Virus record (IMG/VR): IMGVR_UViG_3300048905_000128
Strand: one strand, 5' to 3'
DNA length: 64,000 nt
Source of the DNA: a virus
Under the pieces are notes generated by a model, which saw nothing but the letters and a program-made list of their open reading frames with translations, searched no databases and was not told the DNA's origin. Position numbers and translations under genes: made by a program. Below, piece after piece: positions 20,431 through 55,394 of this stretch (position 1 is the stretch's first letter; the number at the start of each line of letters is the position of its first letter).

Positions 20431-20789
20431 GCACGATCGCCACCATCGGACAGGTCGTCACCGGCCACACCTGGCGCGCCAACAGCGAGGACGAGCTACA
20501 GGCCGGGCTCGCCGCGGCGCTCACCGCGGCCGGGGTCGACGTCGAACGGGAGCACCGGCTCGACGCCCGCAACCGGCTCGACCTGTGGACCGTCGACGGC
20601 ATCGCCATCGAGGTGAAGACGTCACGCCGCACCACCACCGCGGACGTGCTCCGTCAGGTTCGCCGCTACGCCGAACACGACGAGGTTTCGGCGGTCGTGG
20701 TGCTGTCGACGGTCCCCTCCCACACCCTGCTACCGGCGATGATCGGCGGGAAGCCGTGCCATGCCTACCACCTGCGGGGCGCTCTGTGA
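20427..20789 (+). CDS. PD-(D/E)xK (VRR-NUC-like) nuclease (120 aa)
   Basis: GTG 20427 in GTGA overlap. The motif DLWTVDGIAIEVKTS fits D...ExK. It is paired with the SNF2 helicase. Confidence 0.7.
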   Translation: MSTIATIGQVVTGHTWRANSEDELQAGLAAALTAAGVDVEREHRLDARNRLDLWTVDGIAIEVKTSRRTTTADVLRQVRRYAEHDEVSAVVVLSTVPSHTLLPAMIGGKPCHAYHLRGAL

Positions 20790-25836: not shown

Positions 25837-26040
25837 TCACTCGCTCCTCCTCATGAACCCGAGCCGGATCCGCTTCCCCGACCCGCCGCAGCGCGGGCAC
25901 GGTCTCGATGCGGACTTACTGAGCGGCGACACGAACCGCCCCGCCCCGTCGCATTTGCGACACGGCTTGCGCCAGTAGCGGCGCGCATCCCACAGCCACA
26001 CGACCGCGACAACCACCACGAGCGCGACCAGCAGGGTCAC
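25837..26040 (-). CDS. membrane-anchored DnaJ-type zinc-finger protein (67 aa)
   Basis: N-terminal transmembrane helix plus two CxxCxGxG motifs (CRKCDGAG, CPRCGGSG). GTGA overlap. Confidence 0.6.
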   Translation of the reverse strand: MTLLVALVVVVAVVWLWDARRYWRKPCRKCDGAGRFVSPLSKSASRPCPRCGGSGKRIRLGFMRRSE

Positions 26041-26813
26041 AGCCGACCCCCAACCGCCGCCGCCGCGGAGTCACGCACCTCGGCGAGCCACGGCCACAAC
26101 CCAGCACCCAGCCACAGCGCCGCCGCCGTCATCCCGGCGAGCAGCACGACCTCCACCACGCCTCCGGTGTGGAACCGCAGCGGCCTGGGCAGCCCGACCG
26201 GGTACCAGCGCCGCCCCCGGATCGACAGCGGCCACAACAGCGGCGCCCCCGACTCGGTCAGCGCATCCCCGACGTCGTGCACGAGCATCCCCACCGCGAC
26301 AGCTGTCCCGGCCCAGGCGTGCCCGGCCCCGACCGTCCACCACAACCCGGCCGTCAGCAGCCCGGCCGCGGCCAGGGACGGCGGCCCGGGGATCAGGTGG
26401 TCGATGCCCTTCACGGCGAGGGCCAGGCCGACGAACACCACCGACCACAGCGCCCACGACCCCCACACGGCCACCGCGGCGTTCACGCCGACGCCGAGAG
26501 CGACGGCCGCCGCCCCGGTGTGGGTGAGCGCCCGATGAGTGCCCTCGCCGTGATCGCCGGGCCCGGCCGTCGCCCGGAACACGGCCGCCGACAGCGGCCG
26601 CACCACCCGGGAGGCGAGCCACGACGCCGGACCGAACCGGCGTGTGGCGGTCGACGTCGGGTGGTCGAGGTCGGGCAGCAGGCTGAACCCGGCCGTCAGC
26701 ACCGCGAACACGAGCGCGTCCTCACGGCTGTGCACACCCGCGAGCGCGGGCGCCGCGGACGCGAGCGCCAGGCCCACGAACGCACCCGACGTCGCATGAC
26801 TCACGCCCATCAC
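26037..26813 (-). CDS. membrane-bound metal-dependent hydrolase-like protein (DUF457/YdjM-like)
   Basis: LLPDLDHPTSTATRRFG and HRALTHTG motifs with multiple transmembrane helices. GGAGG SD 8 nt before GTG 26813. Confidence 0.6.
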   Translation of the reverse strand: MMGVSHATSGAFVGLALASAAPALAGVHSREDALVFAVLTAGFSLLPDLDHPTSTATRRFGPASWLASRVVRPLSAAVFRATAGPGDHGEGTHRALTHTGAAAVALGVGVNAAVAVWGSWALWSVVFVGLALAVKGIDHLIPGPPSLAAAGLLTAGLWWTVGAGHAWAGTAVAVGMLVHDVGDALTESGAPLLWPLSIRGRRWYPVGLPRPLRFHTGGVVEVVLLAGMTAAALWLGAGLWPWLAEVRDSAAAAVGGRL

Positions 26814-26955
26814 GTGATCCGCCTCCGCTCGTTCGTTCGCTCGTTCGCCCTCATCGCGCCCCCAATGCGCGCAGGCGTGTGCGGGTGTGCGCGGGCGCTT
26901 GCGCTCTCGCACGCGCGCACGTACGCGCGCGCGCACGGTGGGGTCACGGTGGGGT

Positions 26956-28767
26956 TCATGTCCGCACCCACTTGCCGCGCCCGCTGTTGCGGGCCCGGCC
27001 CGCCTCGGCGAGCTTCCGCAGCGCCCGGTCGACCCGGCCCCGATCCACGTCGAGGGCCTTCGCGATGGCCGTCGGCCCGATCCCGCCCTCGGCGGGGAGC
27101 TGGGCGAGCACCTCGTCCTCGAAGTCCGCCGCGGCGACCGCGAGGGATGGGGCGACCTCGAGCGCAGGCACCGGCCTGTGGTCGACGACCTGGGAGGTGG
27201 AGCCCGACAGGATCCCGGCCGACCCGTGGTCGAGCATGATCGCGCCCGCGTCGACGGCGGCCCGGATCAGCCGCTCCCGCTCACCGTCGGTCAGGTACAC
27301 GCCCTTCGCCACGCGCGGGATGTTGTGCTCGTCGTCGCGGAGCAGCCACGTACCGGCCTGCAACTGCGTGCCGTCCCAGCCCTGCTTCACCGCGGAGCCC
27401 CACAGGATGCCGTTCATGTGCTGGTCGAGGCGGCCCCCGAACACGGCCATCATCTGCGCCCGGAACTCGGTGGACCCGGCATCCTCCTTCGTGCCGTTCT
27501 GCAGCATCACGTAGATCCACACCTCGGCCTTGCGGGCACGCTCGGCGAGCACCGTCAACGGGCCCACGATCTCCGGGCCCAGCGCCCTGACCAGCGACGG
27601 AAGCTCGTCGATCACCAGGAAGATGGGGGTGCCGTCCCACTTCTTGAGCTTCCGTTTGCGCATGTCGCGCTCGCGGTGCTCCACGGCCGCCATCACGCGG
27701 TTGAGCAGCTCACTGGCCTGCCCGGCGGTCGTCGCGACCGGGGCGAGCATCGTCGGCTCCCACTCCCCCAGCGACACCCCGCCCGCCATGTCGACCCCGA
27801 CGACCCCGGCCCGGCCGATCGTCATCCACGCCATGAGCGTGTCGCCCATGACGGACTTCCCGCCGCCGGACTGGGCGCAGATCATCGTGTGGCGGGTCAT
27901 CTTGTGCCCGAGCGGCGCCCGGTCCTCGAGCCTCGCCACGTTGCACAGCTCCGAACGCAGGTCTATCTGCCCGAACGGGATCGGGCCGGTCTTCGGGACC
28001 CCCGGGTGCGGGATGACGCCCTGCCACGGGTTCCGCGGCACGATCCGCACCAGCACCCGCCGCGAAGACGCCGCCTGCGAGATCGTCACCGCCCCCGGTC
28101 GCAGATGCGTGGACAGGGCGGACTCGACCTCCCTCGCGGTCCCGCCGACGCTCTTGACCGTCTGGGCGCGTCGCAGCTCGATGACCAAGTCGGTGACGAG
28201 CCGGTCGCCAGTCGTCAAAGACGGGATCACCCGCGACCCCTCGAAGGCCTTGATCGACGATGCGACATGCGGCCACCGTCGCGCCCACCGCGACGAGCGA
28301 CGCCGCGACCGGAACCGGCGATGCCACCACCACGGCAGCCCGAGCGATGCGACAGTCGCAGCCCACGCGATCCACGCCGGCTGCGACATCCCCGCCCACG
28401 CGATGAACGCCATCCAGCCGCCGCCGACCGCGACGAGCGCCGCCAGGTAGGTGCGTTCGCTGTCGCGGTCGAGCACGCCTTTGCGTCCGGCGTCGATCCG
28501 CTCCGGGACGAACCACGCCAGGGCCCGCTGCAGCCACGGCGACAGCCGGTGCCCGGCGTGTAGCAGCACCGGTGCGACACCGAGTGCGACGAGCGCGACC
28601 ACCGCGGCCGCCCAGGGTGCGACAGCGTGTAGCAGCAGGCCTGCGACGAGGATCCCGGCCGCGACAGCCCACGGGGCCAGCCCGGACCGGTACCGCCACA
28701 GCCGCCGCGACACCCACCGGGCCGCCCGCCAGGTGCGGCGAGCGGTCCGCTTCGTCGACGCCTTCAC
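26956..28767 (-). CDS. FtsK/SpoIIIE-family DNA translocase (TraB-like), N-terminal membrane anchor, C-terminal wHTH
   Basis: 603 aa with Walker A (AQSGGGKSV), Walker B (IFLVIDELP) and N-terminal transmembrane helices. The C-terminus is GIGPTAIAKALDVDRGRVDRALRKLAEAGRA. Confidence 0.85.
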   Translation of the reverse strand: MKASTKRTARRTWRAARWVSRRLWRYRSGLAPWAVAAGILVAGLLLHAVAPWAAAVVALVALGVAPVLLHAGHRLSPWLQRALAWFVPERIDAGRKGVLDRDSERTYLAALVAVGGGWMAFIAWAGMSQPAWIAWAATVASLGLPWWWHRRFRSRRRSSRWARRWPHVASSIKAFEGSRVIPSLTTGDRLVTDLVIELRRAQTVKSVGGTAREVESALSTHLRPGAVTISQAASSRRVLVRIVPRNPWQGVIPHPGVPKTGPIPFGQIDLRSELCNVARLEDRAPLGHKMTRHTMICAQSGGGKSVMGDTLMAWMTIGRAGVVGVDMAGGVSLGEWEPTMLAPVATTAGQASELLNRVMAAVEHRERDMRKRKLKKWDGTPIFLVIDELPSLVRALGPEIVGPLTVLAERARKAEVWIYVMLQNGTKEDAGSTEFRAQMMAVFGGRLDQHMNGILWGSAVKQGWDGTQLQAGTWLLRDDEHNIPRVAKGVYLTDGERERLIRAAVDAGAIMLDHGSAGILSGSTSQVVDHRPVPALEVAPSLAVAAADFEDEVLAQLPAEGGIGPTAIAKALDVDRGRVDRALRKLAEAGRARNSGRGKWVRT

Positions 28768-32526: not shown

Positions 32527-32783
32527 CGCCCCGCCACTCCCCCGCCGCCCGCTGAGATCGATTCTCCCGATTCCCGCGCCCGCGAGCACGGGCGGCCCCG
32601 ACTGGCGCGTCCTCGTGGCGCTCAGCCCCTCGGAATGGCCATGCGGCCCCCGGGCCGGGCGTCGGGAACCGGCCCGGGAGCGGTGTGACGTGTGGGCAGC
32701 CCGCTACCCGACCGCACCCCGCCAAGAGGCCGCACGCGGGTAGCCAGTGAGTGGCCGACCGGCTGCCACCCTGCCGCACACCA

Positions 32784-32892
32784 GCGGCCAACAGGCGGCC
32801 AACATGCGGGCAACGGGCGGCACGGTGGTGGCCGACAGACGGCCAGTGTGCCGCGTGTCGGCCCGTCATGGATGGGACACGTGCCGCGTGTC
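32784..32892. repeat. phased short repeats upstream of parA (candidate centromere/operator)
   Basis: Four tandem 11-bp units at 32784-32827: GCGGCCAACAG, GCGGCCAACAT, GCGGGCAACGG, GCGGCACGGTG. GTGCCGCGTGTC occurs at 32848 and 32881, 33 bp apart. Confidence 0.6.
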
Positions 32893-32987
32893 TGTCGCCA
32901 ACCGGTGGGGGAGTGGTGGTGTACTTTCCGCGCGCAACCGGCCCACCTGCCACCCGCACCCCACAAGCCCCCCAGGAGCTCCCCGCC

Positions 32988-33893
32988 ATGATCGAGCGCA
33001 CCGTGTCCTTCATCAACGGGAAGGGTGGCGTCGGGAAGACGTCGCTCACCGCGAACCTCGGTGGGCTGATCGCCGCCGCCGGGTATCGGGTCCTGCTGTG
33101 CGATCTCGACCGCCAGGGAAACCTGGCCCGCGACCTCGGCATCAAAAATGACCCCAGAAATGATCTAGGTCGGTCGATGTTCGTCGCCGCCACCACCGGG
33201 GCCCCACTCGCACCCGTGGAGAACGTGCGACCGAACCTCGACGTCATCCCCGGCGGGAAGGTCATCGGCGAGATGGCGGGCGCGCTCTACTCCCGGGCCA
33301 TCCGCGGCGAGAGCGTCGACACAGCCGTCGAGCAGGCCCTCGCACCGCTCGCCGGGAACTACGACCTCATCCTGTTGGACTGCCCGCCGGGGGAGGAGAC
33401 GGTGCAGCGCATGGCGTTGACCACGTCGGAGTACGTCGTCATCCCCACCAAGAGCGACGCCGCATCCCTCGACGGGCTCGTCGAGGTCTCCGAGCTGTTC
33501 GCCGCCGTCCGCCAGTCGAGCAACCCGTACGTGCAGCTCCTCGGCGTGGTGCTGTTCGGGACCGGGGTGACGTCGAAGCGGATCGCCGCCGACACCCGCA
33601 AAGCGGTGGCGCGGGACCTGGGGAACCCCGACCTCGTGTTCGACGCCCGGATCCGGCACGTCGAGGCGGCCGCCGTGAACACCCGCGACGTCGGCCGTCT
33701 CGTCCACGAAGTCGAGGCCGACCTGCCCGCCGCGAAGGCGGCCCGGCTCGCGCAGCTGCGAGCCGGGCGGCACCGGGCCGACGACGCCGGGCCCCGGCTC
33801 GCCGCATCGGCCGCCGGGCTGGCCGCCGACTATGCGGCGCTCGCCCAGGAGTTCACCGCCCGTCTCGCCGAGCGCGTCGAGGTGGCGCCATGA
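32988..33893 (+). CDS. parA: ParA-family partition ATPase (301 aa)
   Basis: Deviant Walker A FINGKGGVGKTS, plus LLDCPPG. AGGAG SD before ATG 32988. Confidence 0.9.
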   Translation: MIERTVSFINGKGGVGKTSLTANLGGLIAAAGYRVLLCDLDRQGNLARDLGIKNDPRNDLGRSMFVAATTGAPLAPVENVRPNLDVIPGGKVIGEMAGALYSRAIRGESVDTAVEQALAPLAGNYDLILLDCPPGEETVQRMALTTSEYVVIPTKSDAASLDGLVEVSELFAAVRQSSNPYVQLLGVVLFGTGVTSKRIAADTRKAVARDLGNPDLVFDARIRHVEAAAVNTRDVGRLVHEVEADLPAAKAARLAQLRAGRHRADDAGPRLAASAAGLAADYAALAQEFTARLAERVEVAP

Positions 33894-35204: not shown

Positions 35205-36125
35205 TCAGCGCGACAGCGCGATCACCGAGGCGTTCACCTCGGCCGTCGGGTCGCATCGGCCCTCGACGGTGACCGCGACACAGCCGTCGAGCACCACGAC
35301 GCCGTGGATCAGGTTCCGCGGCGACCCGGGGATGTTCACCTCGCCGTTCGGGAGTACGACGCCGTGCTCGTCGAGCTGGCAGACCCGGAAGTCGGCGGTA
35401 CCGCCGTCGGGGCCGTACGCCATCCCGAACTTCACCCAGCAGGCGCGCAGGGCCGCGGACTGGGGTCCGGCCTCGGCGGCGGTGATGAGCCGCCGGAACG
35501 TGCCGTCGGGGCGGACGGTGATCGAAACGTCGGACACGGGGTCCTCCTCGGACGGGGCCGCCGCGGCGGCCGGGGAGCTGGTGGGGGAGCCGGTGACGGC
35601 GGCCATGAACTCGGGCCACGGGAACCCCGGCCCGGGGTCGGTGTGGGTGGACTGGTGCCACGTCTCGGAGACGTCGACGTGCCCGCAGATCCCGTGCCCG
35701 CCCTCGTGGAGCTCCGGGACGCCGATCCGGACGGCCGGGATCGCGAACCGGGCACACAGCTCGGCAGTGCGCCCGGCGGCCCGGACGACGGCGGGCCACA
35801 CGGCGGGGGAGAGCCACTGCTCCCGCGTGTAGGTGGCCTCCCCGCACACCTCGATGCCGATGCTGTGCTGGTTGGGCGGCGCATGCCAGGCGATGTGCGC
35901 GTCGGGGACGCAGTGCTGCTCCCCGGCGACGTCGACGACGTAGTGGGCGGACCCACGCGCCTCAGCCGTGTCGAAGTAGTGGGCCGTCGAGGCGGCCTGT
36001 CCTGCAGCGGACGCCTCCGGATAGCCCAGATCCGGGCAGGTCGCGTGGATGACGACCCGGGTCGGCATCAGGTTGCCCGGCCCGTCGTCGTGGACGGCCT
36101 GCAGAGTGACCGGCGGTTCCGCCAC
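35205..36125 (-). CDS. endolysin, N-acetylmuramoyl-L-alanine amidase (Amidase_2/PGRP-like) plus C-terminal domain
   Basis: GTG 36125 after GGGGA. Motifs VVIHATC, HYVVD, IAWHAPPNQHSIGIEVCG and HVDVS...HTDPG. Confidence 0.85.
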   Translation of the reverse strand: MAEPPVTLQAVHDDGPGNLMPTRVVIHATCPDLGYPEASAAGQAASTAHYFDTAEARGSAHYVVDVAGEQHCVPDAHIAWHAPPNQHSIGIEVCGEATYTREQWLSPAVWPAVVRAAGRTAELCARFAIPAVRIGVPELHEGGHGICGHVDVSETWHQSTHTDPGPGFPWPEFMAAVTGSPTSSPAAAAAPSEEDPVSDVSITVRPDGTFRRLITAAEAGPQSAALRACWVKFGMAYGPDGGTADFRVCQLDEHGVVLPNGEVNIPGSPRNLIHGVVVLDGCVAVTVEGRCDPTAEVNASVIALSR

Positions 36126-36138
36126 GGCGTCCCCTCTC

Positions 36139-39100
36139 TCAGATGGTGGTGATCGGTGTCGCGGCCCGGTAGAGGCCGCGGGCGTACGGGCGTCCGGCCC
36201 GGGGGAGACCGGTCGCGTAGGGCTGGCCTGCGCGCAGAGCACCGACCGGGCCCGGGCCGACCCCGAACGGGGCCGCCGAATCCCGCGCGGCCGCCACATC
36301 GGTAGCGGTCCGTGTGACCGCGTGGATCCGGGTGGCCGTGTCGAGGGCTGCGGCCTGGTCGACGACCGCCCGACCCCGCTGCGACGGGGCCCTCACCGCG
36401 ACATCGGTTGCGGCCGCGACATCCGCGGCGGTAAAGGCCCTCGTCGAGGTGGGCCCCGCCTGGTCGGCTGCGGGGGCCGCATCGGAGGCGGTGCGGGACA
36501 CCACCAGGTGACGGAGCACCGTGTCCGCTGCCGTCGCGGCATCGGCGATCAGCCGCGACAGCGACACCGCGGCCGTGGTGACATCGGAGGCCGGTGCGAC
36601 ATCCGATGCAAACCGGGGGAGCCCCGCCGGTACGAACACGCTGTCGAATGCCGGGGCCGAATCCTGGGCGGTCCGCGACCGTGACAGCGGGCTGCGGGTG
36701 GCGGCCGGTGTCGCCGAGGCCGAGTCGGTGACGTCGCGGCTGGTCGAGAGGTTCGCCCGGGTGGCGACGTCGACCGCTACGGCGACGTCCTGCGCCGTGT
36801 GTTGGAGCTGCACGGCCCGGCCCGCGACGTCGAGCGCCGGGGCCGAATCGGCGCTGCCCCGGGTGGGGGACAGCGCAGCCCGGGACGCCACGTCGACTGC
36901 AGCTGCGACATCCACGGCGGTGCGGCCGACACCGTCCGGGGCTCGGGTCGCCCCGTCGAGCGCCGCCGCGGTGTCGGCGACGGTCCGCCCGATCGAGGCG
37001 GCCGCCGTCGCCGCATCGACCGCGGCGGCCTGGTCGTCGGCGGTCCGGGCCCCGAGCTCGGGGGGGCGCCCGGCCTGATCCGTTGCCGCCGCGGTGTCGG
37101 CGGCCTGCCGGTCGACGGTGACCTGCCCGGCCGCGGTGTCGACGGCCGGGGCGTGGTCGACGACGAACTGGCCGCCCGCCGCTGACGTCCCCGCCGTGTC
37201 CACGGCGGGCGCCGAGTCGGCGGCCGACCGGGATCTCGTCGTTGCTGCTCGTCCCGCCGAGTCCACGGCCGGGGCGGAGTCGCCTGCCTGGCGGGATGCC
37301 ACCGTGCTCCGGGCCGCGCTGTCTGTCGCTGGCGCGGTGTCGGTGACGGTGCGGGACAGCCGGACAGCCGGTGTAGCACCGTCGACCGCAGGGGCGGTGT
37401 CCGTGGTGCTCCGTAGCGGCGACATCGTGGCCCGTGCCGCGACGTCGACGGCCGCCGCGACATCGGATGCTGTCGTAGCGCCGCCGAGCTGGTCGGCCGC
37501 CGAGTCCACGGCCGGGGCGGAGTCTGTCGCAGTGCGGGACCATGTCGCGCCACCCCGGTTTGCGACATCGGTCGCAGCCGCGGTGTCACCGGCCGTGCGG
37601 GCGGCCGAGAACGGGGCCCGGCCCGCCGAGTCGGTCGCGGCGGCGGTGTCCGTTGCGACCCGGGCGGGGGTCAGAGCAGACCGGGTGGCCGAGTCGGTCG
37701 CGGCCGCGGTGTCCCCGCCGGTTCGGGAGAAGATCGAGCCTGCACGGGCGGCGGTATCCGTCGCCGGCGCGAGGTCACCACCGGTGCGGCTGACCGCCAG
37801 TGCCGTCCGGCTGGCTGTGTCGGTAGCCGCGGCGGTGTCGGCGGCCGTCCTAGACCACGTGTCCGCCGAGCGTGTGGCGCTGTCGGTCGCCGCAGCGGTG
37901 TCGGCCCCGGTCCGGGTGACGAGCAGGGCCGCCCGGGTGGCCGTGTCGGCGGCTGGGGCCGTGTCGGTCGCGGTCCGGGCCCGGGTGATCGTCGAGCGGG
38001 TCGCGGTGTCCGCCGCCGGGGCCGAGTCGGTCGCGCCGATCGTGCTGGCCTGGGCGCCCCGCACCACCGCGTCGCCGGCCGGGGCCGAGTCCGATGCGGT
38101 GCGGATGGACGAGGTGGCCGCCCGTGAGGCCGCATCGGTGGCGGCCGCCGAGTCGACGGGGGAGCGGCCCGCCGTGGTCGTGCGGGCTACGGAGTCCGTC
38201 GCGGCCGCCGTGTCGGCGCCCGACCGGGACTTGAGTACCGCTCCGTGGGTAGCGGAGTCGCTGGCCGGGGCCGAGTCCGACGCGGTCGCCAAATGCGACC
38301 CCGACGTGCCGAGCAGCGCGTTCGTGACGAGGCCGCCGATGATGGCGTGTCCGGCGTCGGTCGGGTGATAGTCCGACGTCCAGTCGGTGGTTCCGGGGCC
38401 GCCGGTGCCGGACATCCACGTCTCGGCGTCGATGACCAGCAGGTTTCCGTCGGTTGCCGCGTAGCTCCTGATGGCGGCGGCGTACGCCGCCCACGTCGGG
38501 CTGGCCGTCGCGGCGGTCGGGGACACGTTGTGCGCGATGAACAGGGCGATCGACGGCACCTTCGTGAGGGCGCGCGCCCATCCGACCAGGGTGGTCAGGT
38601 AGCCGATGTACGCGGCCGTCGTGGTGTTCGCCGACCAGTCGTTGAGCCCCAGCTCGATGAGCACGAGGTCGGGGCTGAGGGCATCCCACGTGGCCGGGAG
38701 CGTGTTCGACCCGACCGCGTCGAAGCCGCTCGCATACTGCTGGGCGGTGATGCCGACGCGGGCCCCGTCGTAGAGCGTGATCCCGCTGGTGGCGTCGCCG
38801 TCGAAGACGACGAGGCCGCCGACGTACGCGTTCTGCGCTGCGTTCGTGGCGACCTGCACGGTGTGGGACCCGGAGGCGCCGAGGGTGATGGTCGTCGGCG
38901 TCCAGGTGGGCGCACCGCCGTTGTCGGCGGTCACGGTGACCGGGGAGCCGCCGTCGACGGAGTAGGTGAACTGGGAGGCGCCGCTGTAGGCGCCGTACCA
39001 GAGCTGCGCCGAGGTGCCGGTGACCGTCCACGTGAGGGTGGCGGTGGTGCCCAGTAGTCGAGTGTTGAAGCCGAACGGTCCGGACCAGAAGTCCGTATTG

Positions 39101-39564
39101 CTGCTGCCAGTTTCGGCGATCCCGGTTGTGCCCCAAGGGGAATCGGGGCCATACACCTGGTACTTCGCCGGGATGGCGCCGACGCCGCCCGCGGCCAGGC
39201 CCAGCCGTGCCCGGATCGCCGCGACCGTGAGGCTCGCCCACCGGTTGGCCCGGACGGACGCCCCCTGCCCTTCCCCGACGGAGTCGCCGATGACAAGCAG
39301 CCGGGCCCGACCCGTCCCTACCTGGGCCGCCGAGAGCGCCGTGTTCCATGCGGTCAGCGGTCCACTGGCGGGCACAGCCCGGTCGCCCGCTGTGTCCGTC
39401 GCCCCGGCCGTGTCCGCGGCCGACCGGGCACGGGTCGCCACACTGCGGGTCGCGGTGTCGGTGGCCGGGGCCGAATCCGAGGCGGACAGATTCGCCTGGA
39501 CCTGCGAGGCCACCACGGGCGCGGCCCGCAGGCGGCGGGGGATGCTGCGGCCGAGGATCGCCAC
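36139..39564 (-). CDS. 1141-aa minor tail-like protein: SGNH/GDSL hydrolase domain plus about 32 tandem 21-aa repeats
   Basis: GDS block LLVIGDSVGEGQG, GLNDW block and DYHPTDAGH (DxxH) block. From about aa 427 to 1105 the protein is a run of units such as RTGADTAAATDSATRSADTWS. Confidence 0.8.
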   Translation of the reverse strand: MAILGRSIPRRLRAAPVVASQVQANLSASDSAPATDTATRSVATRARSAADTAGATDTAGDRAVPASGPLTAWNTALSAAQVGTGRARLLVIGDSVGEGQGASVRANRWASLTVAAIRARLGLAAGGVGAIPAKYQVYGPDSPWGTTGIAETGSSNTDFWSGPFGFNTRLLGTTATLTWTVTGTSAQLWYGAYSGASQFTYSVDGGSPVTVTADNGGAPTWTPTTITLGASGSHTVQVATNAAQNAYVGGLVVFDGDATSGITLYDGARVGITAQQYASGFDAVGSNTLPATWDALSPDLVLIELGLNDWSANTTTAAYIGYLTTLVGWARALTKVPSIALFIAHNVSPTAATASPTWAAYAAAIRSYAATDGNLLVIDAETWMSGTGGPGTTDWTSDYHPTDAGHAIIGGLVTNALLGTSGSHLATASDSAPASDSATHGAVLKSRSGADTAAATDSVARTTTAGRSPVDSAAATDAASRAATSSIRTASDSAPAGDAVVRGAQASTIGATDSAPAADTATRSTITRARTATDTAPAADTATRAALLVTRTGADTAAATDSATRSADTWSRTAADTAAATDTASRTALAVSRTGGDLAPATDTAARAGSIFSRTGGDTAAATDSATRSALTPARVATDTAAATDSAGRAPFSAARTAGDTAAATDVANRGGATWSRTATDSAPAVDSAADQLGGATTASDVAAAVDVAARATMSPLRSTTDTAPAVDGATPAVRLSRTVTDTAPATDSAARSTVASRQAGDSAPAVDSAGRAATTRSRSAADSAPAVDTAGTSAAGGQFVVDHAPAVDTAAGQVTVDRQAADTAAATDQAGRPPELGARTADDQAAAVDAATAAASIGRTVADTAAALDGATRAPDGVGRTAVDVAAAVDVASRAALSPTRGSADSAPALDVAGRAVQLQHTAQDVAVAVDVATRANLSTSRDVTDSASATPAATRSPLSRSRTAQDSAPAFDSVFVPAGLPRFASDVAPASDVTTAAVSLSRLIADAATAADTVLRHLVVSRTASDAAPAADQAGPTSTRAFTAADVAAATDVAVRAPSQRGRAVVDQAAALDTATRIHAVTRTATDVAAARDSAAPFGVGPGPVGALRAGQPYATGLPRAGRPYARGLYRAATPITTI
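36250..38286 (-). repeat. in-frame degenerate 63-bp (21-aa) tandem repeat array
   Basis: Consensus R-T-x-x-D-T/S-A-A/P-A-x-D-x-A-x-R-x5; two further units at the N-terminus (aa 27-62). Confidence 0.8.
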
Positions 39565-39593
39565 CGAATGACCCCCCTCCTACTGTCGGCGGG

Positions 39594-40091
39594 TCATTCG
39601 TCGTAGACGATGTAGCAGTTCGCGGATACCGCGGTGGCGGTCGTCATCCGGATGCGCAGCACCCGCGTGGGCGGGACCACGAACTCGCGTCCGAGGGACC
39701 ACTCGTAGTCGTACTGCGACACCCCGATCGGGGCGATCCACTCGTCGCCGGTGCGGGTCGCGGTGATCGAGCCCTCCGCGGTCGAGGTGTAGCCGGTCCC
39801 GGACGTCGACAGGGTCACCCCGGAGGCCGGGGTGGTCTCACCGGCGCTGTAGGGCTGCACACCGGCGGCGACGTGCGCGGTCACGGTCGCCGCGACGGTG
39901 CCGGTCTCGAGCAGCTCGCACGAGACGACGGCGGTCGGGGCGGACGAGAACCGCACGCCCCACCGCACGACCCGCATCGCGCGGGTCGAGTGGAGGACCT
40001 GCAGCATCGTCTTGATCGAGGTGCCGGTCGTGACCGGTGTGCGGGCCGCCGTCGTCGGCATCGCGCTGTTCCACACGACGAACTGAGTCAT
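39594..40091 (-). CDS. minor structural protein (165 aa), paralog of 50668..51129
   Basis: AGGAGA SD before ATG 40091. The C-terminus SLGREFVVPPTRVLRIRMTTATAVSANCYIVYDE parallels PLGREPRGVGGSGNRIGLRVTTATGSTPNARAYIEIEE. Confidence 0.65.
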   Translation of the reverse strand: MTQFVVWNSAMPTTAARTPVTTGTSIKTMLQVLHSTRAMRVVRWGVRFSSAPTAVVSCELLETGTVAATVTAHVAAGVQPYSAGETTPASGVTLSTSGTGYTSTAEGSITATRTGDEWIAPIGVSQYDYEWSLGREFVVPPTRVLRIRMTTATAVSANCYIVYDE

Positions 40092-40798: not shown

Positions 40799-41167
40799 CT
40801 ACTGGATCAGGCGGTCGACCGCGAGGAAGGGGCCCCGTCCGGGGATGCCGGGCTGACCGAGGGGGTTGGTGATCTGCAGCTCGAACATCGCCGAGGTCCA
40901 CGTCCACGCGGCGGTGATCTCGCCGAGGAGCTGGAGGACGACGCCGTCGTCTGTGCAGGTCAGGTTGTTGTTGGCGGCCGACCACTCGTAGTAGAGGGTC
41001 TGGTCGCCGCCTTCCTGGCAGACCTGGGCGATGGCGGACCATCCGGCCATGGAGATCACGGCGGCGGAGTCGTCGAGGATCGGGATGGTGATCGTGAACG
41101 TCTCACCCTTGTTGACCTTGAAGTTGAGTGGGGTCGTCCGAACGTCCAACCCGAGCGCGGCCGTCAC
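40799..41167 (-). CDS. hypothetical structural protein (122 aa)
   Basis: Track ORF with a GTGA overlap to the upstream gene. Confidence 0.6.
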   Translation of the reverse strand: MTAALGLDVRTTPLNFKVNKGETFTITIPILDDSAAVISMAGWSAIAQVCQEGGDQTLYYEWSAANNNLTCTDDGVVLQLLGEITAAWTWTSAMFELQITNPLGQPGIPGRGPFLAVDRLIQ

Positions 41168-41505
41168 CCCGTCTCGCAGCTGTAGACGCCCGCCGACCGG
41201 TAGGTCAGCGGACAGTCCTCCACCCGACCGCCGACGTGCACCCGCACCGACACTGGGGGGACGGTCACGGTCTGGACGACCGGCGGGGGCGGATCGGCCG
41301 TCACCGGCGCCGTGGGGGCCGCGGACGGGGTGATCCGGCCGAACAGGTGCACCCCATCCGACACCGCCGTCCCCTGCAGGGCAGGAGCGCCGAGCACGAA
41401 CACGACCACCGCCACGACCACACCCGCCGTCGCGGCCAGAGCCTCGACAGGGAACACGCGGCTGGGCGAGCTGGGGCGCCGGTGGGCGCCCACCTGATGG
41501 GCCAC
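41164..41505 (-). CDS. membrane-anchored protein (113 aa)
   Basis: GGAAAGGAGGGG SD. It has a transmembrane helix (AATAGVVVAVVVFVLGA), a Pro-rich linker and two C-terminal Cys. Confidence 0.6.
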   Translation of the reverse strand: MAHQVGAHRRPSSPSRVFPVEALAATAGVVVAVVVFVLGAPALQGTAVSDGVHLFGRITPSAAPTAPVTADPPPPVVQTVTVPPVSVRVHVGGRVEDCPLTYRSAGVYSCETG

Positions 41506-41531
41506 GAGGCCCCTCCTTTCCGACGATGGGT

Positions 41532-41569
41532 GTCGCCGGACCCGGCCCTCTCCCTCCGGGCCCGGCGAC
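41532..41569 (-). terminator. GC hairpin after the holin
   Basis: GTCGCCGGACCCGG pairs with CCGGGCCCGGCGAC, a 14-bp stem with one mismatch. Confidence 0.45.
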
Positions 41570-41572
41570 AGA

Positions 41573-41962
41573 TCAGGACCCGGTCGGGACGGCCGGGATC
41601 TCGGCGGTCGACTCGGCGTCCGCCGGGGACGTCACCGACGACACAGCCGGGGCGGTGGCGGCCTGCACCGCCGAGATGTGACCGCGCAGCAGGTCCTCGA
41701 GATCGTCGATCAGCCCCGGCACGGCGGCCCGGGCGTCGGCCTCGACATCGGCGATCAGCTTCGTGCGGTTCGACGACGCGGCGTTCACCCCGACGACCTT
41801 GAGCAGCGCCAGGAGCGCGGCAACCCCGCCCCCGGCGAGCGCGGCCCGCCAGTCGAAGGTCTGCAGCGTGACGGCGGTTCCGCCCGCGGCGATGGATCCG
41901 GCGAAGGCCTGGACGAAGGTCCAGCCGACGCGCTCGGCGAGATCGAAGAGGGTGGCGTTCAC
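41573..41962 (-). CDS. holin (phage r1t-like family)
   Basis: GTG 41962 in GTGA overlap. ERVGWTFVQAFAGSIAAGG...FDWRAALAGGGVAALLALLKVV resembles r1t-type holins. Confidence 0.7.
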   Translation of the reverse strand: MNATLFDLAERVGWTFVQAFAGSIAAGGTAVTLQTFDWRAALAGGGVAALLALLKVVGVNAASSNRTKLIADVEADARAAVPGLIDDLEDLLRGHISAVQAATAPAVSSVTSPADAESTAEIPAVPTGS

Positions 41963-42588
41963 GGGGCTGCTCCGTTCGTGCCCGCCGTCGGGGTCGGGCA
42001 TGCGTAGTTGGGTGCCTGGTCGGTGCCGGGGTCGTTGGGGTCGCGGGTACAGACCGAACTGGTGCCGTCCGCGTAGCGCTCGGTGATCCGGGCAGGCGGG
42101 GCGCCGTCAGCCCCGGGTTTCCCGTCGACACCGTTGGTGCCGTTCGTTCCGTTGGCGCCGTCCACCCCGGGTTTCCCGTCCACCCCGGGTTTCCCGTCAG
42201 CCCCGGGTTTCCCGTCGGCCCCGTTGGTGCCGTCGCGACCGACGCACTGGCTCGGCGTGGACAGGCACGGCGGGGACTGACCGTCGTGGCCGTTCTGCCC
42301 CGGCGGGCCTTGGGTCCCGTCCCTTCCGTTGACCGGGGCGGGGGTGACTACGGGGGTGTGTCCGAGCGAGCGCACCTGATCTGCGAGCTGCGATGCGGAG
42401 TCGCCGAGGGACACGACCTCGCCCTGCAGCGTGTCGATCTGGCGGTGCGAGCCGAGCCAGAGCGTGAACAGGGCGATCGCGGCCGTCACTATCAGCCCGA
42501 ACAGGATCAGCAGTAGTCGGATCGTGCGGGGTTCGCGCGCCTGGTCGGCGGCCGTCGCGGTGATCGCCGCCCGTAGATCATCAGTCAC
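41959..42588 (-). CDS. membrane-anchored collagen-like repeat protein (209 aa)
   Basis: GTG 42588. Transmembrane helix IRLLLILFGLIVTAAIALFTLWL, then Gly-X-Y runs of 5 and 15 triplets (GRDGTNGADGKPGADGKPGVDGKPGVDG...). Confidence 0.7.
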   Translation of the reverse strand: MTDDLRAAITATAADQAREPRTIRLLLILFGLIVTAAIALFTLWLGSHRQIDTLQGEVVSLGDSASQLADQVRSLGHTPVVTPAPVNGRDGTQGPPGQNGHDGQSPPCLSTPSQCVGRDGTNGADGKPGADGKPGVDGKPGVDGANGTNGTNGVDGKPGADGAPPARITERYADGTSSVCTRDPNDPGTDQAPNYACPTPTAGTNGAAP

Positions 42589-42880
42589 CGTCGCCTCCGT
42601 CGTCGGTGAGGTCGTCGGCGACCTTCTCTGCCAGCTCGCCCAGCTCCACCAGCGCCTTGAGGCGGGCTGTGAGGACGTCGTCAGGGTCGCCGCGCTTGGC
42701 GTGCTTGTGTCTCTTGTGCGATGGCGGCCGACTGGCGGTCGCGAGCTCGGCGGCCTTCCCGGCTGCCTGCTCGCGCTGTCGTCCCGAGGAGCGCACCGCG
42801 ATGATGATCGCTGCCGTGGCGGAGCCGAGCGCCGTGACGAGGCTGGCGATAGCCGTGACGAGCGCGGCTGCTCCGTCCAC
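42581..42880 (-). CDS. small membrane protein (99 aa), holin-like topology
   Basis: GGGAAGGTGA SD. N-terminal transmembrane helix and a charged C-terminus. Confidence 0.55.
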   Translation of the reverse strand: MDGAAALVTAIASLVTALGSATAAIIIAVRSSGRQREQAAGKAAELATASRPPSHKRHKHAKRGDPDDVLTARLKALVELGELAEKVADDLTDDGGDGD

Positions 42881-46833: not shown

Positions 46834-49584
46834 CTAGAAGATCGGGACGGTGGTCTGGCCCAACACGCCGCGCGTCGGGTCTTCGAGCACCCACGCCGAG
46901 TCGACGAACACGGGGGAGAGCTGCAGGTCCACGGTCCACTCCGACGTGTCGGCGACCACCTTGATTTCGATCTTCTCGACGTAGTAGTCGTGAGAGAACG
47001 ACAAGGCGGGGGAGCGGCGGAACACCCTCACCCGTTGCTGCAGCTCGAGGCCGAGCACGACCGGCCACAGCGACGGGTTCGCCGCCGGACGCAGCGTCAG
47101 CTTGGTGATCCGGGTACGTGGCGCCCCATAGCGGGCGAGGTAGAAGATGCCCGCCTGCTCGACGTCGAAGTCGGTGTTGACCTGCAGCTCTTGGGTGAGG
47201 ATCCGTTGCCCGTAGCGGTCCTGAGCGGCCTGGTCCACCATCGGGGCGATGTTGCTGTTGTCCGGCCTGGTCAGGTTCGCCTGCGTGAACACGTACGTGG
47301 GGTCGTGGTCGGTCGAGTAGTCCGAGTAGGGCAGCTCCGACTCGTCGTTGTCGGGGTCCTCCCCGAACACGGCCACCGGCTCCTGGTCGAGGTAGCGGTA
47401 ATCGCGGTCGGGCCACTGGACGGCGCCCGCCACGTCGGCGAACAGCACCGCCCGTTCGGTCTCGCCGATCTCCTGTAGGACGTCGAGCATCGTCCGGGTG
47501 TCATAGGAGAAATCCGGGGCCATTCGGGCGTAGCCGCCCATGTAGCCGCGCGGCCCCTTCCAGTACTTGTCGAGCAGCCGCGCCACCCGGGCACCGGACC
47601 GCTCGCCCTTGTACCCGATGCCGCGCTGGTAGTGCGCGAGCCGCCGCGCCGTCATGTCGGCGATCGACCACGCATAGTTGTAGACGGCCCACCTGCTGAC
47701 GGACCCCTGGGCCTGCGGCTCCCCGAACTGGCTGCTCGCCTCGTGGTACAGGGTGTTGAACCCGAGGAAGCGGGGGTAGCCGCCCGCGGAACCGCCCGGG
47801 GTGATCGAGAGATAGCCGAGGGCGTCCCCGTCCATCGCGACATACCAGCGGGCGCCGACGACGGCCTGCCACATGTAGTGCCACTCGCCGTCGTCGAACG
47901 TCTCGAAGCTCAACGAGTCCGCGAGCCCGTATGAGGCGCCCGACCCGGCGATCCCGGTCCGGAGCGCGAACCGCAGCTGCCCGCCGTAGCCGAGCGCGGC
48001 GACGGTGGGCACATTCCAGTTGAGGCCGTGCGGATCTGCGACGTCGAGGAGTTCGAGGGTGCCGAACTGGATGGTGCCCGCGTTGTAGCGCACCCACAGC
48101 TCCCACATGAACCCGCCTGCGGTGTCCAGTGAGACGAACCCGCCCTGCACGGTCATCTCGGTGGAGCCGCCGGTCGAGGGGAACACGGCGGGGGCGTCCT
48201 TGCTCTCGCCCCTGGCTGGGTCGCCGCCTGGGTTCTGGTTGGCGAACGTCACGGCGGGGGTGCCGTCGGGTGCGGCGTCCGACCCCCAGTTGATCGACCC
48301 GCCGTCGGGGATCACCCACCGAGTGAAGCCGTTGGGGCCCTTGCCCAGCTCGGCACCGGTGTTCGGGCTGACCTGGTTGCTCATCGGGTGGTACAGCATG
48401 GGGGTGTCGGCGGCGATCTCGGCGTCGTAGCTTTGCGCGATCGCGGTCCGGGAGAGGATCGCGAGGGCGTCGACGGCCTGTAGCGGTCGCTGTGCCCGCG
48501 TGCCGGACATGTCGTAGTTGGTGGGCCAGCGTTCGACGTAGCCGGTGAACTGCGGGTAGAGCACGGGGCCGGTGAGCGTGGCGTCGCTCAGGGACGGCCC
48601 GAACTCCAACTGGTAGTCATCCACGTAGAATGTCGGATTCGCGACGCCTGCACCGAAGATGATGATCTGTTCGGCGGTGTCGACCGTCTGCCAGTTGAAG
48701 AAGATCCGCGTCCACACGTTCTGTGCAGCCGCAACCGCCGACTGCGTCGTGTCCCCGCCCGCATCGACGACCTGCGCCATCACCGTGCACCCACCCGTCG
48801 GGCGCACCCACACCGACCACGTGTAGTCGAGCGCGGGCACCGTCGGCGGCACGATCGCCACCCCATGCCCCGCGCCCGCCGCCGCCTGCACCACCTTGAG
48901 CGACGACGAACCCGAGTGGTGCTGCTCGGTCACCACCGTCCGCGTCGTCGCCTCATCGAGCACCACCCACGGCGCCGCCGGATCCGCCGAACCCGCAGCC
49001 TCGAAGTCGGGCCGGTAGTCGACCCCGAGCGTCGGGTTGAAGATGTTCCCGCTGCCCGGCTGATTCGGCCACATCCCCCACACCCGAACCGCCCGGTACG
49101 CGGTGACCGCGTTGTCCCCGACGTTGTACGGCGAGGACGGGCTGTCCGGGTTCAGCATCTCCAGCGGGTCCGGCACGTCGATCTCACACGTCCCGGCCTG
49201 GACCTGGTCCAGCTCGTACTGACGTCCGCGCGACGTCGACCACGACCGCACCACCAGGCGCCGCCCAACCCGGTTGAGGGACTGCCGGGCCGCCCCCGGC
49301 ACACCGGGCGGCCCCTGGGTGAAGTCCACGTCGAACCCCACGACAGGCCAGTTCGGGTTCGGCAGCGTCGCCACCGGCGGGGCGGCGAGCTTGAGCGCCC
49401 CCGCAACATCGGTGGCCCCGGCGACGTCCTGCACGGTGCGGGACTGCGCAGGCATCCGCCACGACACCGAGTCCACGGCGGGCGCCGAATCGAACGCCAG
49501 CCCAGGAGTGACCGGCGCCGCCAGCACCCCCGGCGACACCCCGCGTGCCGGCCGGGCGGAGTAGCTCCGACCGATGCGAGCCAT
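46834..49584 (-). CDS. large minor tail protein (916 aa) with CBM4_9-like carbohydrate-binding module
   Basis: Track ORF. The block ...SLKVVQAAAGAGHGVAI...WTRIFFNW...ANPTFYVDDYQLEF is typical of CBM_4_9. Confidence 0.8.
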   Translation of the reverse strand: MARIGRSYSARPARGVSPGVLAAPVTPGLAFDSAPAVDSVSWRMPAQSRTVQDVAGATDVAGALKLAAPPVATLPNPNWPVVGFDVDFTQGPPGVPGAARQSLNRVGRRLVVRSWSTSRGRQYELDQVQAGTCEIDVPDPLEMLNPDSPSSPYNVGDNAVTAYRAVRVWGMWPNQPGSGNIFNPTLGVDYRPDFEAAGSADPAAPWVVLDEATTRTVVTEQHHSGSSSLKVVQAAAGAGHGVAIVPPTVPALDYTWSVWVRPTGGCTVMAQVVDAGGDTTQSAVAAAQNVWTRIFFNWQTVDTAEQIIIFGAGVANPTFYVDDYQLEFGPSLSDATLTGPVLYPQFTGYVERWPTNYDMSGTRAQRPLQAVDALAILSRTAIAQSYDAEIAADTPMLYHPMSNQVSPNTGAELGKGPNGFTRWVIPDGGSINWGSDAAPDGTPAVTFANQNPGGDPARGESKDAPAVFPSTGGSTEMTVQGGFVSLDTAGGFMWELWVRYNAGTIQFGTLELLDVADPHGLNWNVPTVAALGYGGQLRFALRTGIAGSGASYGLADSLSFETFDDGEWHYMWQAVVGARWYVAMDGDALGYLSITPGGSAGGYPRFLGFNTLYHEASSQFGEPQAQGSVSRWAVYNYAWSIADMTARRLAHYQRGIGYKGERSGARVARLLDKYWKGPRGYMGGYARMAPDFSYDTRTMLDVLQEIGETERAVLFADVAGAVQWPDRDYRYLDQEPVAVFGEDPDNDESELPYSDYSTDHDPTYVFTQANLTRPDNSNIAPMVDQAAQDRYGQRILTQELQVNTDFDVEQAGIFYLARYGAPRTRITKLTLRPAANPSLWPVVLGLELQQRVRVFRRSPALSFSHDYYVEKIEIKVVADTSEWTVDLQLSPVFVDSAWVLEDPTRGVLGQTTVPIF

Positions 49585-49607: not shown

Positions 49608-50234
49608 TCAGTTGGTGACGGAGTGCGTGATCGTCAGCTGATCCCCGGACGCGTTGATCGTCGCCGCCGCGCTCAGCGTCGTGTGGAACAGCGGAGCACC
49701 ACCCTGGGCGCGCTGAAAGATCCCGTCCGAGTACACGGTGACCGGCAGACCCGAGTCGGAGCCGTTCGCCGTGAACGTCGCGGTCAGCGTGTAGCCCGCC
49801 GCCGACGTCGTGTGCGTGTACCCGGCGGCCTTGCGGTAGAGCCCGCCCGCGGTGGTCGCGTACTCCGAGCCGAGCGCGGTGTCGCCCGCCGCCGGGGCGG
49901 TGTTGCTCGTGTCCAGGCCCATGAAGTAGGCGGCGGCCTGGCCCGGCAGCACGACGAACCCCGGCGTGCCGGTGGGGATCGACCCGGCCGTGGTGCCGCC
50001 CGGGGTCGACGGGTTGTACCACTTGTCCACGGTCAGGACGCTGGTCGTGTGGCTGACGATGTAGCCGTAGACGCCCCCGACCGCGACGATGTGGCCGACG
50101 AGCGCCGGGCTCGCCGGGAACGGGGTGCCCGTCGCCGTGATCGTCGTCGAGGTCGCCGACGACATGGTCGCGGTGACCTGCGTCGGGTCGCCCATCTGAC
50201 CGGCCTGCTGGTCGTTGCCTGCGTTGGTCTTCAC
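49608..50234 (-). CDS. minor tail protein (208 aa)
   Basis: Track ORF. Two CCCCTACCCC copies plus GGGAG lie upstream of GTG 50234. Confidence 0.7.
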   Translation of the reverse strand: MKTNAGNDQQAGQMGDPTQVTATMSSATSTTITATGTPFPASPALVGHIVAVGGVYGYIVSHTTSVLTVDKWYNPSTPGGTTAGSIPTGTPGFVVLPGQAAAYFMGLDTSNTAPAAGDTALGSEYATTAGGLYRKAAGYTHTTSAAGYTLTATFTANGSDSGLPVTVYSDGIFQRAQGGAPLFHTTLSAAATINASGDQLTITHSVTN

Positions 50235-55355: not shown

Positions 55356-55394
55356 CGGGCCCCCTTCGGTTCGGTGAGACAGGGGGCGCACAGC

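Follow-up and report, generated by a model that had tools for sequence, protein, structure and literature searches.

A tandem 20/21-residue repeat family and a candidate Ape1-like esterase in the late operon of a siphophage-type virus

Towards the end of the late genes in a 64,000-nucleotide stretch of viral DNA (IMG/VR virus record IMGVR_UViG_3300048905_000128, here called the window) lies a gene whose 1141-amino-acid (aa) product joins an SGNH esterase domain to a long tandem repeat. The question raised by this locus is whether such a protein acts from the virion or is instead released together with the endolysin that is encoded next to it. We favour the former, and put at roughly 0.55 the probability that the product is a modular, fibre-like phage protein, mounted on the virion tail, that carries an Ape1-like O-acetylesterase on a repeat rod. 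What is new here is the repeat family, together with its linkage to two small gene families that we refer to as A and B, both family and linkage being absent from the libraries and literature that we searched; the kind of esterase is known.

The original prediction, which a model made from the letters of the DNA alone, had placed the reading frame at 36139-39564. The frame and its length of 1141 aa held up, whereas the strand had to be corrected to minus, with a GTG start at 39564, a GGAGG box 11 nucleotides (nt) 5' of this start, and a stop codon at 36139-36141. (A plus-strand reading of the same interval was rejected because its translation is full of stops.) Five contigs, derived from at least two sequencing runs and up to 86.7 kb long, encode the identical protein, and the gene is thus not an assembly artefact, a possibility for which the original prediction had allowed. 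The protein, which we refer to as the target, is divided as follows:

36139..39564, minus strand: the whole target gene, encoding the 1141-aa late protein
39367..39564, minus strand: N-terminal segment (aa 1-66), a leader beginning MAILGRS followed by two repeat units (aa 26-66)
38305..39357, minus strand: SGNH/GDSL esterase domain (aa ~70-420), interrupted by an inserted beta-sandwich
38803..39120, minus strand: the inserted beta-sandwich (aa ~149-254), which resembles a carbohydrate-binding module (CBM), with DSSP strands between blocks I and III of the enzyme
36250..38289, minus strand: array of 33 tandem 20/21-aa units (aa 426-1105), R-T-A-x-D-x-A-x-A-x-D-x-A-x-R-x(5-6)
36142..36249, minus strand: C-terminal tail (aa 1106-1141) of three ~11-aa mini-repeats, GALRAGQPYAT / GLPRAGRPYAR / GLYRAATPITTI

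The repeat and its family

Where the original prediction had about 32 tandem units of 21 residues between aa 427 and 1105 and two more N-terminal to the enzyme, we counted 33 units of 20/21 aa and located the additional pair at aa 26-66. The motif D-x-A-x-[AP]-x-D occurs 33 times in the target at a spacing of 20/21 aa, with two degenerate units filling the gaps, and the lag-21 autocorrelation of the protein is 0.33, whereas in 2000 shuffles the best lag gave 0.177 +/- 0.006 (z about 24). When three-unit segments were aligned, D5, A7, and A9 were invariant and D11 was present in at least 90%, and it was the last 5-6 residues of the unit that varied. At the level of the DNA the copies of the repeat are old and diverged, as had been predicted: Tandem Repeats Finder detected no 63-nt array, and the unit cores share a mean nucleotide identity of 58% (maximum 78%), with a longest exact shared run of 28 nt. 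The invariant Asp and Ala residues are encoded by several synonymous codons across units, which confirms the reading frame and reveals selection on the protein. Note that antisense open reading frames (ORFs) of 185, 424, and 185 aa, with high G+C at third codon positions (GC3), overlap the target at 36521-39571 on the plus strand (for example at 37094-38368); long ORFs of this sort are by-products of a GC-rich Ala/Thr/Asp repeat and are not to be annotated as genes.

The original prediction did not recognise the repeat, and neither did the libraries: aa 427-1141 had no match in Pfam (E up to 10), NCBIfam, PHROGs, or the sequences of the PDB. In tblastn searches of 50,697 GenBank phage records only the SGNH part was matched (4 records), with no repeat-bearing relative, and a less Ala-rich repeat array taken from the protein P0003 found nothing in the same records (here and below, P and L numbers are our handles for proteins and loci). 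A word-indexed search yielded 26 proteins, the majority of them matching through the repeat, and a three-unit profile run against 1.84e9 representatives retrieved 287, 152, and 50 clusters at E <= 1e-3, 1e-10, and 1e-30, respectively; the motif alone recovered eight IMG/VR contigs. Members of the family reach 2468 aa. A block of repeats may hold as few as 2 or more than 45 units, and may follow, separate, or precede the globular parts of the protein. The recognisable heads are mostly concanavalin-A-like LamG_3 domains (6 cases), with FN3, CBM, and others also represented, and the contigs that encode these proteins are phage-like, having tape measure, portal, terminase, and capsid genes. Judged from these sequence comparisons, the repeat is portable, recurring in phage proteins whose heads are interchangeable and mostly carbohydrate-binding or enzymatic. 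Searches of the literature for the motif strings returned DSAPATD only in streptavidin constructs, and a keyword search on actinophage tail repeats or esterases returned nothing specific. Scans of GTDB species genomes with the whole protein and with DTAAATD-centred patterns confirmed no relatives, but the patterns were of limited breadth and units do occur on a contig from a Pseudonocardia genome (see below), so this null is not evidence of absence.

Among 1605 units from 129 other proteins, Arg is found at position 1 in 81% and at position 15 in 54%, and a hydrophobic residue at position 3 in 70% and at position 13 in 80%, none of these four positions having been fixed by the search pattern. 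The conserved positions therefore alternate (R1, hydrophobic 3, D5, A7, A9, D11, hydrophobic 13, R15), a pattern like that of beta strands in which one face is constrained. Contigs of lower G+C retain the register with a swapped core (DSISISD, DSSINTD, DTLFISE, DTGAGTE): Ala-rich cores such as DSAPATD and DTAAATD occur at 64-74% GC, and Ser/Ile/Asn-rich cores such as DSISISD and DSSINTD at 48-60% GC. The core varies in this way, with period and register unchanged, in L032, L043, L045, L047, L058, and L016. Several arrays have a 40/41-aa super-period that arises from two alternating unit types, and four proteins (P0001, P0003, P0004, and P0010) end in R/G-rich mini-repeats of 9-11 aa comparable to those at the C terminus of the target.

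An AlphaFold2 model of ten units, built on a 37-row alignment of in-register windows, has two strands per unit at a predicted local distance difference test score (pLDDT) of 58.5. When this model was compared to the PDB with Foldseek no match was significant; the best, a weak beta-helix/solenoid at E 0.06 and probability 0.03, is not used as evidence. Of the long fibre or beta-solenoid envisaged in the original prediction, the model thus bears out a beta-rich unit and not the fibre or the solenoid. We conclude that the repeat is probably a folded, beta-rich element, and probably an oligomeric one.

Could the array instead be a disordered, low-complexity spacer of Ala, Thr, Asp, and Ser that is favoured by high G+C and has spacing as its only function? 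The composition of the array (A 29%, T 14%, D 10%, S 10%, and 10 aromatic residues in 680 aa) would fit such a spacer, as would the low pLDDT and the non-significant fold matches. So too would the presence of Ser, Ile, or Asn at Ala positions in lower-GC members, which indicates that base composition accounts for some of the abundance of Ala. However, the periodicity is strict, and D5, A7, A9, and very nearly D11 are held constant despite synonymous codons and 58% nucleotide identity. Moreover, the register (R1, D5, D/E11, R15, and hydrophobic residues at 3, 7, 9, and 13) is retained at GC fractions of 0.48-0.74, and strands are predicted in every unit. This pattern of conservation argues against a purely disordered spacer, which we consider improbable.

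Among the repeats that are already known is the triple beta-spiral of adenovirus and reovirus fibres, which is trimeric and intertwined and has two strands and a variable loop around a ~15-aa core. The target repeat resembles it in layout, with a conserved 15-residue core, variable 5-6 residues, and two predicted strands per unit. The target repeat, which was modelled as a monomer, has no sequence or fold match to the triple beta-spiral. Choline-binding and CROP repeats (~20 aa) have a period similar to that of the target, but there was no match to Pfam CW_binding_1, a repeat defined by an aromatic-rich consensus, at E <= 10. The GGxGxD of the RTX beta-roll is missing from the target, to which the beta-roll has no sequence match, and the target has neither the G-X-Y triplets of collagen-like phage fibres nor any periodicity of that type, a separate collagen-like gene being present nearby.

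Two linked gene families and a shared N-terminal segment

The repeat is not confined to the target within the window, and proteins that bear it are encoded close to two small genes. The features concerned lie in the tail module of the window or, in the last case, on a contig from a Pseudonocardia genome:

50277..50606, minus strand: family B gene, ~109 aa from an internal Met, directly 5' of A; its ORF extends to 50774
49608..50234, minus strand: family A gene, 208 aa, which co-occurs with repeat proteins
46834-49584, minus strand: g916, encoding a 916-aa CBM-containing tail-module protein (PHROG 5313, CBM_4_9), followed by further tail-region genes
49393..49497, minus strand: the two repeat units of g916 (aa 30-64); g916 is the gene directly downstream of A
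51861-55391, minus strand: tape measure protein gene (PhageMin_Tail, PHROG 58), with several small genes after it
L015 (Pseudonocardia sp. T1-2H, GCA_038039215.1, contig JBBPCL010000002.1, 47128-67745): tail module syntenic with the window

Every locus that was selected through the repeat and that includes upstream sequence has a homologue of A, 41-57% identical, in phages that otherwise share almost nothing. When ORFs were clustered, both A and B were present in 10 of 10 distinct testable repeat-selected loci, with B always immediately upstream of A. (A and B are accompanied by repeat-protein genes in nearly all of the loci that we examined, namely L001, L003, L007-L010, and L012-L064.) To ask the question in reverse, 48 loci were fetched by means of A alone, 3 of them contigs looked up by A protein and 45 of them IMG/VR loci. 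A repeat protein was found in all three contigs, and exactly one repeat ORF was found in 34 of the 45 IMG/VR loci, its start usually lying within 0-3.5 kb on the downstream side of A. In eight of the 11 negatives the sequence breaks off less than 2 kb from A, and among loci with enough downstream sequence the count is 34 of 37. As a control, 2262 six-frame ORFs of at least 150 aa were put through the repeat test, and only those repeat ORFs passed it. Family A comprises 189 clusters, all of them annotated as hypothetical, and family B ranges from ~90 to 170 aa across loci. The window copies of A and B gave nothing above cut-off in Pfam or PHROGs, and a profile search of the PDB with family A gave no match. 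A third small family, C, whose ~180-aa members are encoded just 3' of A, was seen in 5 loci but is missing from the window, and is not counted in the core module.

The position of the B-A-repeat cassette differs among phages: it follows the tape measure protein gene in L007, L015, and the window, closes the late operon in L001 and L017, precedes the terminase and portal genes in L003, and comes directly after the capsid gene in L016. These varied positions indicate that the cassette behaves as a mobile unit. They also bear on whether the cassette might encode a decoration fibre that is attached to the capsid or the collar rather than to the tail. Besides the capsid- and terminase-proximal sites in L016 and L003, the C-terminal domain of A, which weakly resembles the fibre I protein gp80 of podophage GP4 (Pfam PF23140, Gp80; of the two members that match, P0261 narrowly clears the cut-off and P0165 narrowly misses it), could be taken to favour this. 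According to PMC11445570, which describes Zheng et al. 2023, the GP4 fibres attach around the head-to-tail adapter. Nevertheless, the module of L007, L015, and the window is part of the block of tail genes, where it comes after the tape measure protein, and the late operon has the target at its far end; a fibre of the head or neck seems to us improbable.

The first 60 residues of the target and of the g916 protein are 43% identical (E 2e-9), so that two different proteins of one phage have in common a leader followed by two repeat units. The g916 homologue of Pseudonocardia sp. T1-2H (L015, 10646-13312) has 8 N-terminal units as judged with a hidden Markov model of the unit. We infer that the shared N-terminal segment is a common docking element. 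The sharing of the repeat by a whole family of phage proteins, the two linked small genes, and the common N terminus of g916 all lie beyond what the original prediction had described.

A broader proposal, which we put forward tentatively and with less confidence than the placement of the target on the tail, is that the repeat forms a new kind of phage fibre shaft, tens of nm long, that would be either trimeric and beta-spiral-like or a two-sheet solenoid. In this proposal A, B, and the repeat protein would together make up a mobile plug-in cassette whose heads are swapped, and the N-terminal runs of units would serve for docking.

The candidate esterase domain

That the enzyme is an SGNH esterase, as originally predicted, is supported by matches to PF13472 (Lipase_GDSL_2; 58.5 bits against a cut-off of 32.9, E 1.6e-15) and PF00657 (Lipase_GDSL; 29.0 bits against a cut-off of 23.6). 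These matches span only aa 264-410 because of the beta-sandwich insert. PHROG 15881, labelled "tail protein", matches aa 33-419 (E 1.8e-33; profile positions 157-551 of 554). In an alignment of the window protein and six homologues (7 sequences) the catalytic blocks are as follows:

39280..39288, minus strand: block I, G93-D94-S95; G93 and S95 are invariant (7/7) and Ser95 is the predicted nucleophile
38638..38649, minus strand: block III, G306-L-N308-D309; G306 and N308 are invariant and N308 is the putative oxyanion-hole Asn
38347..38376, minus strand: block V region, S397-D-Y-H400-P-T-D403-A-G-H406; H400 is invariant (7/7)

The motifs read in the original prediction (GDS at 93-95, GLND at 306-309, and DAGH at 403-406) are thus at the residues given, and Ser95, Asn308, and the block V His are conserved in homologues. 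The prediction was also right about the region of block V, but not about its His, which is H400 in S-D-Y-H-P rather than H406; the latter belongs to a G-H downstream of the block that is kept in 6 of 7 sequences and replaced by Gln in one homologue. Four homologues have the canonical block V, D-x-x-H-P, whereas S-D-x-H is found in the window protein, P0027, and P0028. The acid of the window protein stands two residues before the His (His-2) and not three (His-3), which leaves the geometry of the triad uncertain. In P0028 (581 aa), a homologue of the enzyme module, G-T-S replaces G-D-S and Gln replaces the equivalent of H406; since the invariant Ser and the equivalent of H400 are both retained, this protein may still be active.

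In the AlphaFold2 model of aa 1-430 (predicted template modelling score 0.76) the domain adopts the alpha/beta/alpha SGNH fold, aa 1-65 being modelled without confidence (pLDDT <50). The best Foldseek match in the PDB is Ape1, a peptidoglycan O-acetylesterase, of Neisseria (4k3u; E 1.2e-14, TMt 0.72), with Ape1 of Campylobacter (8gkd) also found; the match to both is global (TMt 0.65-0.72), and family 2 carbohydrate esterases rank next. In total, 92 PDB structures matched at E <= 1e-3, and among the matches listed most are SGNH esterases or CBM-containing glycan enzymes. In Ape1 (Neisseria meningitidis 4K3U; Campylobacter jejuni 8GKD), as in the target, an SGNH alpha/beta/alpha domain is interrupted by a CBM-type beta-sandwich, which in Ape1 is CBM35-like and occupies the same position, and the Ser, Asn, and His motifs are present in the target. 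Identity in the structural alignment is nevertheless 13-17%, and phmmer against the PDB gave no match at E <= 1. Unlike Ape1, moreover, the target is phage-encoded, lacks a signal peptide (neither a signal peptide nor a transmembrane segment was found in it), and carries a 680-aa repeat array. The model is consistent with the deacetylase or esterase type that had been predicted, in that the closest solved fold is that of a cell-wall glycan deacetylase.

Closer relatives of the enzyme are found among actinophages. SGNH proteins of PHROG 15881 have the same module at ~31% identity by tblastn, and include BrayBeast gp25 (Arthrobacter; "esterase"), Gudmit gp29 (Gordonia; "minor tail protein"), and proteins of Thunderclap and ReqiPoco6. 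In that family the enzyme is C-terminal (profile 157-551 of 554), whereas in the target 720 more residues follow it. Foldseek against BFVD gave as its best matches actinophage proteins named minor tail protein, hydrolase, esterase, or tail fibre (Thunderclap, Fosterous, Suzy, and ReqiPoco6), the top of the list being the minor tail protein of Arthrobacter phage Thunderclap (E 2.8e-27), along with hydrolases of Gordonia phages and the tail fibre of Rhodococcus phage ReqiPoco6. On the evidence of these sequences and models, the enzyme part is a known and widespread phage module.

Tail or lysis: the setting of the gene

The window has a siphophage-type late operon on the minus strand that runs from ~64 kb down to 35.2 kb with the head genes first, and the target, as had been predicted, is its penultimate gene. 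The genes that surround the target are these:

41959-42588, minus strand: collagen-like protein gene of the late operon, between the g916 region and the target
41573..42001, minus strand: holin-like gene, 142 aa (PHROG 443, E 2.7e-8), with one strong hydrophobic segment
40109-40786, minus strand: LamG-like protein gene, between two small proteins and the 165-aa gene
39594-40091, minus strand: 165-aa gene directly 5' of the target, GC3 ~0.95-1.0
35205..36125, minus strand: endolysin gene (Amidase_2, 306 aa), the last of the operon, which starts 13 nt past the stop codon of the target

The target is thus placed between the holin-like gene and the endolysin, with five genes in all standing between these two. 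Neither Pfam nor PHROGs matched the 165-aa gene, and none of the other repeat loci has a homologue of it. A terminator-like hairpin lies 3' of the endolysin gene, and the genes beyond it are on the opposite strand. At 41164-42880 on the minus strand three small membrane proteins are predicted (99, 142, and 113 aa, the second being the holin-like protein), with the collagen-like gene interleaved among them, so that the late operon ends in a mixture of lysis and fibre-like genes.

This setting raises the alternative that the target is a soluble accessory enzyme of the lysis cassette, released with the amidase endolysin, in which the SGNH domain would de-O-acetylate peptidoglycan or some other wall polymer and so help to break down the wall, while the repeats bind the wall multivalently, much as do the ~20-aa choline-binding or CROP repeats of Gram-positive lysins and toxins. 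Its position 13 nt upstream of the Amidase_2 gene and downstream of the holin-like gene and two other small membrane proteins speaks for such an enzyme, as does its top structural match, a peptidoglycan O-acetylesterase. The homologous SGNH genes of BrayBeast and Gudmit, each the last gene of its late operon, also come directly after the lysis genes. Furthermore, an N-terminal catalytic domain followed by C-terminal repeats is the usual layout of lysins of phages that infect Gram-positive bacteria, and two strands per ~21-aa unit would fit a hairpin repeat of the kind that choline-binding repeats form. Yet the same repeat is joined to lectin-type heads that are not lytic (LamG and FN3), it is present at the N terminus of the tail-module protein g916 and of the homologue of that protein, and it is tied to a fibre-knob-like gene, A, at sites far from lysins (after the capsid gene, before the terminase gene, and after the tape measure gene). 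In addition, the aromatic residues of choline-binding repeats are missing, and there is no Pfam CW_binding match. We therefore regard a role confined to lysis as unlikely, if less so than a disordered spacer or a fibre of the head.

In the reading that we prefer, that of a tail-mounted fibre-like esterase, the shared N-terminal segment would dock the target to the tail, possibly via A or B or both, and the array would be an elongated oligomeric shaft or a multivalent wall-binding rod that provides reach or multivalent binding. During adsorption the esterase would strip O-acetyl groups from an envelope glycan of the host (peptidoglycan or a wall polysaccharide), and this deacetylation would expose a receptor or open access to the wall, as is the case with the SGNH tail-fibre esterases of phages of Gram-negative bacteria. 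G7C gp63.1 is an SGNH deacetylase that forms a tail fibre or spike of one such phage. SGNH-type deacetylase tail fibres or spikes are reported for Acinetobacter, Klebsiella, and Pectobacterium phages (PMC11058221, PMC13123978, PMC9569702). The target is likened by analogy to these virion receptor-binding proteins, which act as esterases on surface polysaccharide, and the window phage may also dock two different proteins via a shared N-terminal segment. The hosts, the envelope, and the shaft are different, however, and the comparison involves no demonstrated sequence relationship.

Consistent with a place on the tail, the target belongs to the late operon and comes after the tape measure gene in it. 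Several observations weigh on the other side. The labels "tail protein" in PHROGs and GenBank are annotations and not experiments. The target has the holin-like gene on one side and the endolysin on the other, and SGNH homologues in cultured actinophages likewise adjoin the lysis cassette, one of them carrying the bare annotation "esterase". The order of its parts is that of a lysin, tail fibres usually having their head at the C terminus. The repeat model is of low confidence and has no significant fold match. The acid of the triad is displaced by one residue and the loop that bears on it (aa 385-398) is poorly modelled (pLDDT <50), so that esterase activity is not certain. Finally, L015 has no repeat-bearing SGNH gene within 10 kb downstream of A, which indicates that the target is an accessory addition in the window phage.

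L015 also bears on the identity of the host. Homologues of the tape measure protein (57% identity), g916 (47%), A (53%), and other tail genes are all found on this Pseudonocardia sp. T1-2H contig, and the enzyme module taken by itself is closest to a 364-aa SGNH protein from Pseudonocardia pini (58% identity). The G+C content of the window is 65-77%, for the most part about 70-73%. From these homologues, the host is probably a high-GC actinobacterium of the Pseudonocardiaceae. A megablast comparison of 24 kb to the 50,697 GenBank phage records gave no match, and hence no related cultured phage. The remainder of the window (1-35133) encodes a ParA-like protein (32751-33893, plus), helix-turn-helix regulators, an FtsK/SpoIIIE-like protein (26956-28767, minus), YdjM (26037-26936, minus), an SNF2 helicase (20585-22510, plus), and a RecT-like protein (18098-19741, plus). 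No integrase turned up among the window proteins that were scanned, and the element may be maintained like a plasmid.

The SGNH tail-fibre esterases of Gram-negative phages are well known, whereas the means by which actinophages recognise thick and often acetylated envelopes are much less characterised. This locus provides a concrete candidate for an Ape1-like deacetylase of an actinophage, and the repeat family, with at least 287 clusters and two partner genes, has the look of a scaffold on which uncultured actinophages generally mount heads that bind receptors or modify the wall. Once defined, the repeat family would help to annotate late genes that are now called hypothetical, and would also serve as a modular scaffold in host-range engineering and as a new target for structural work. 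If the broader proposal is correct, phages of Actinobacteria would move the cassette among capsid-, neck-, and tail-proximal sites and load it with lectin or enzyme heads, and a single phage, here with g916 and the esterase, would mount different proteins on the same site.

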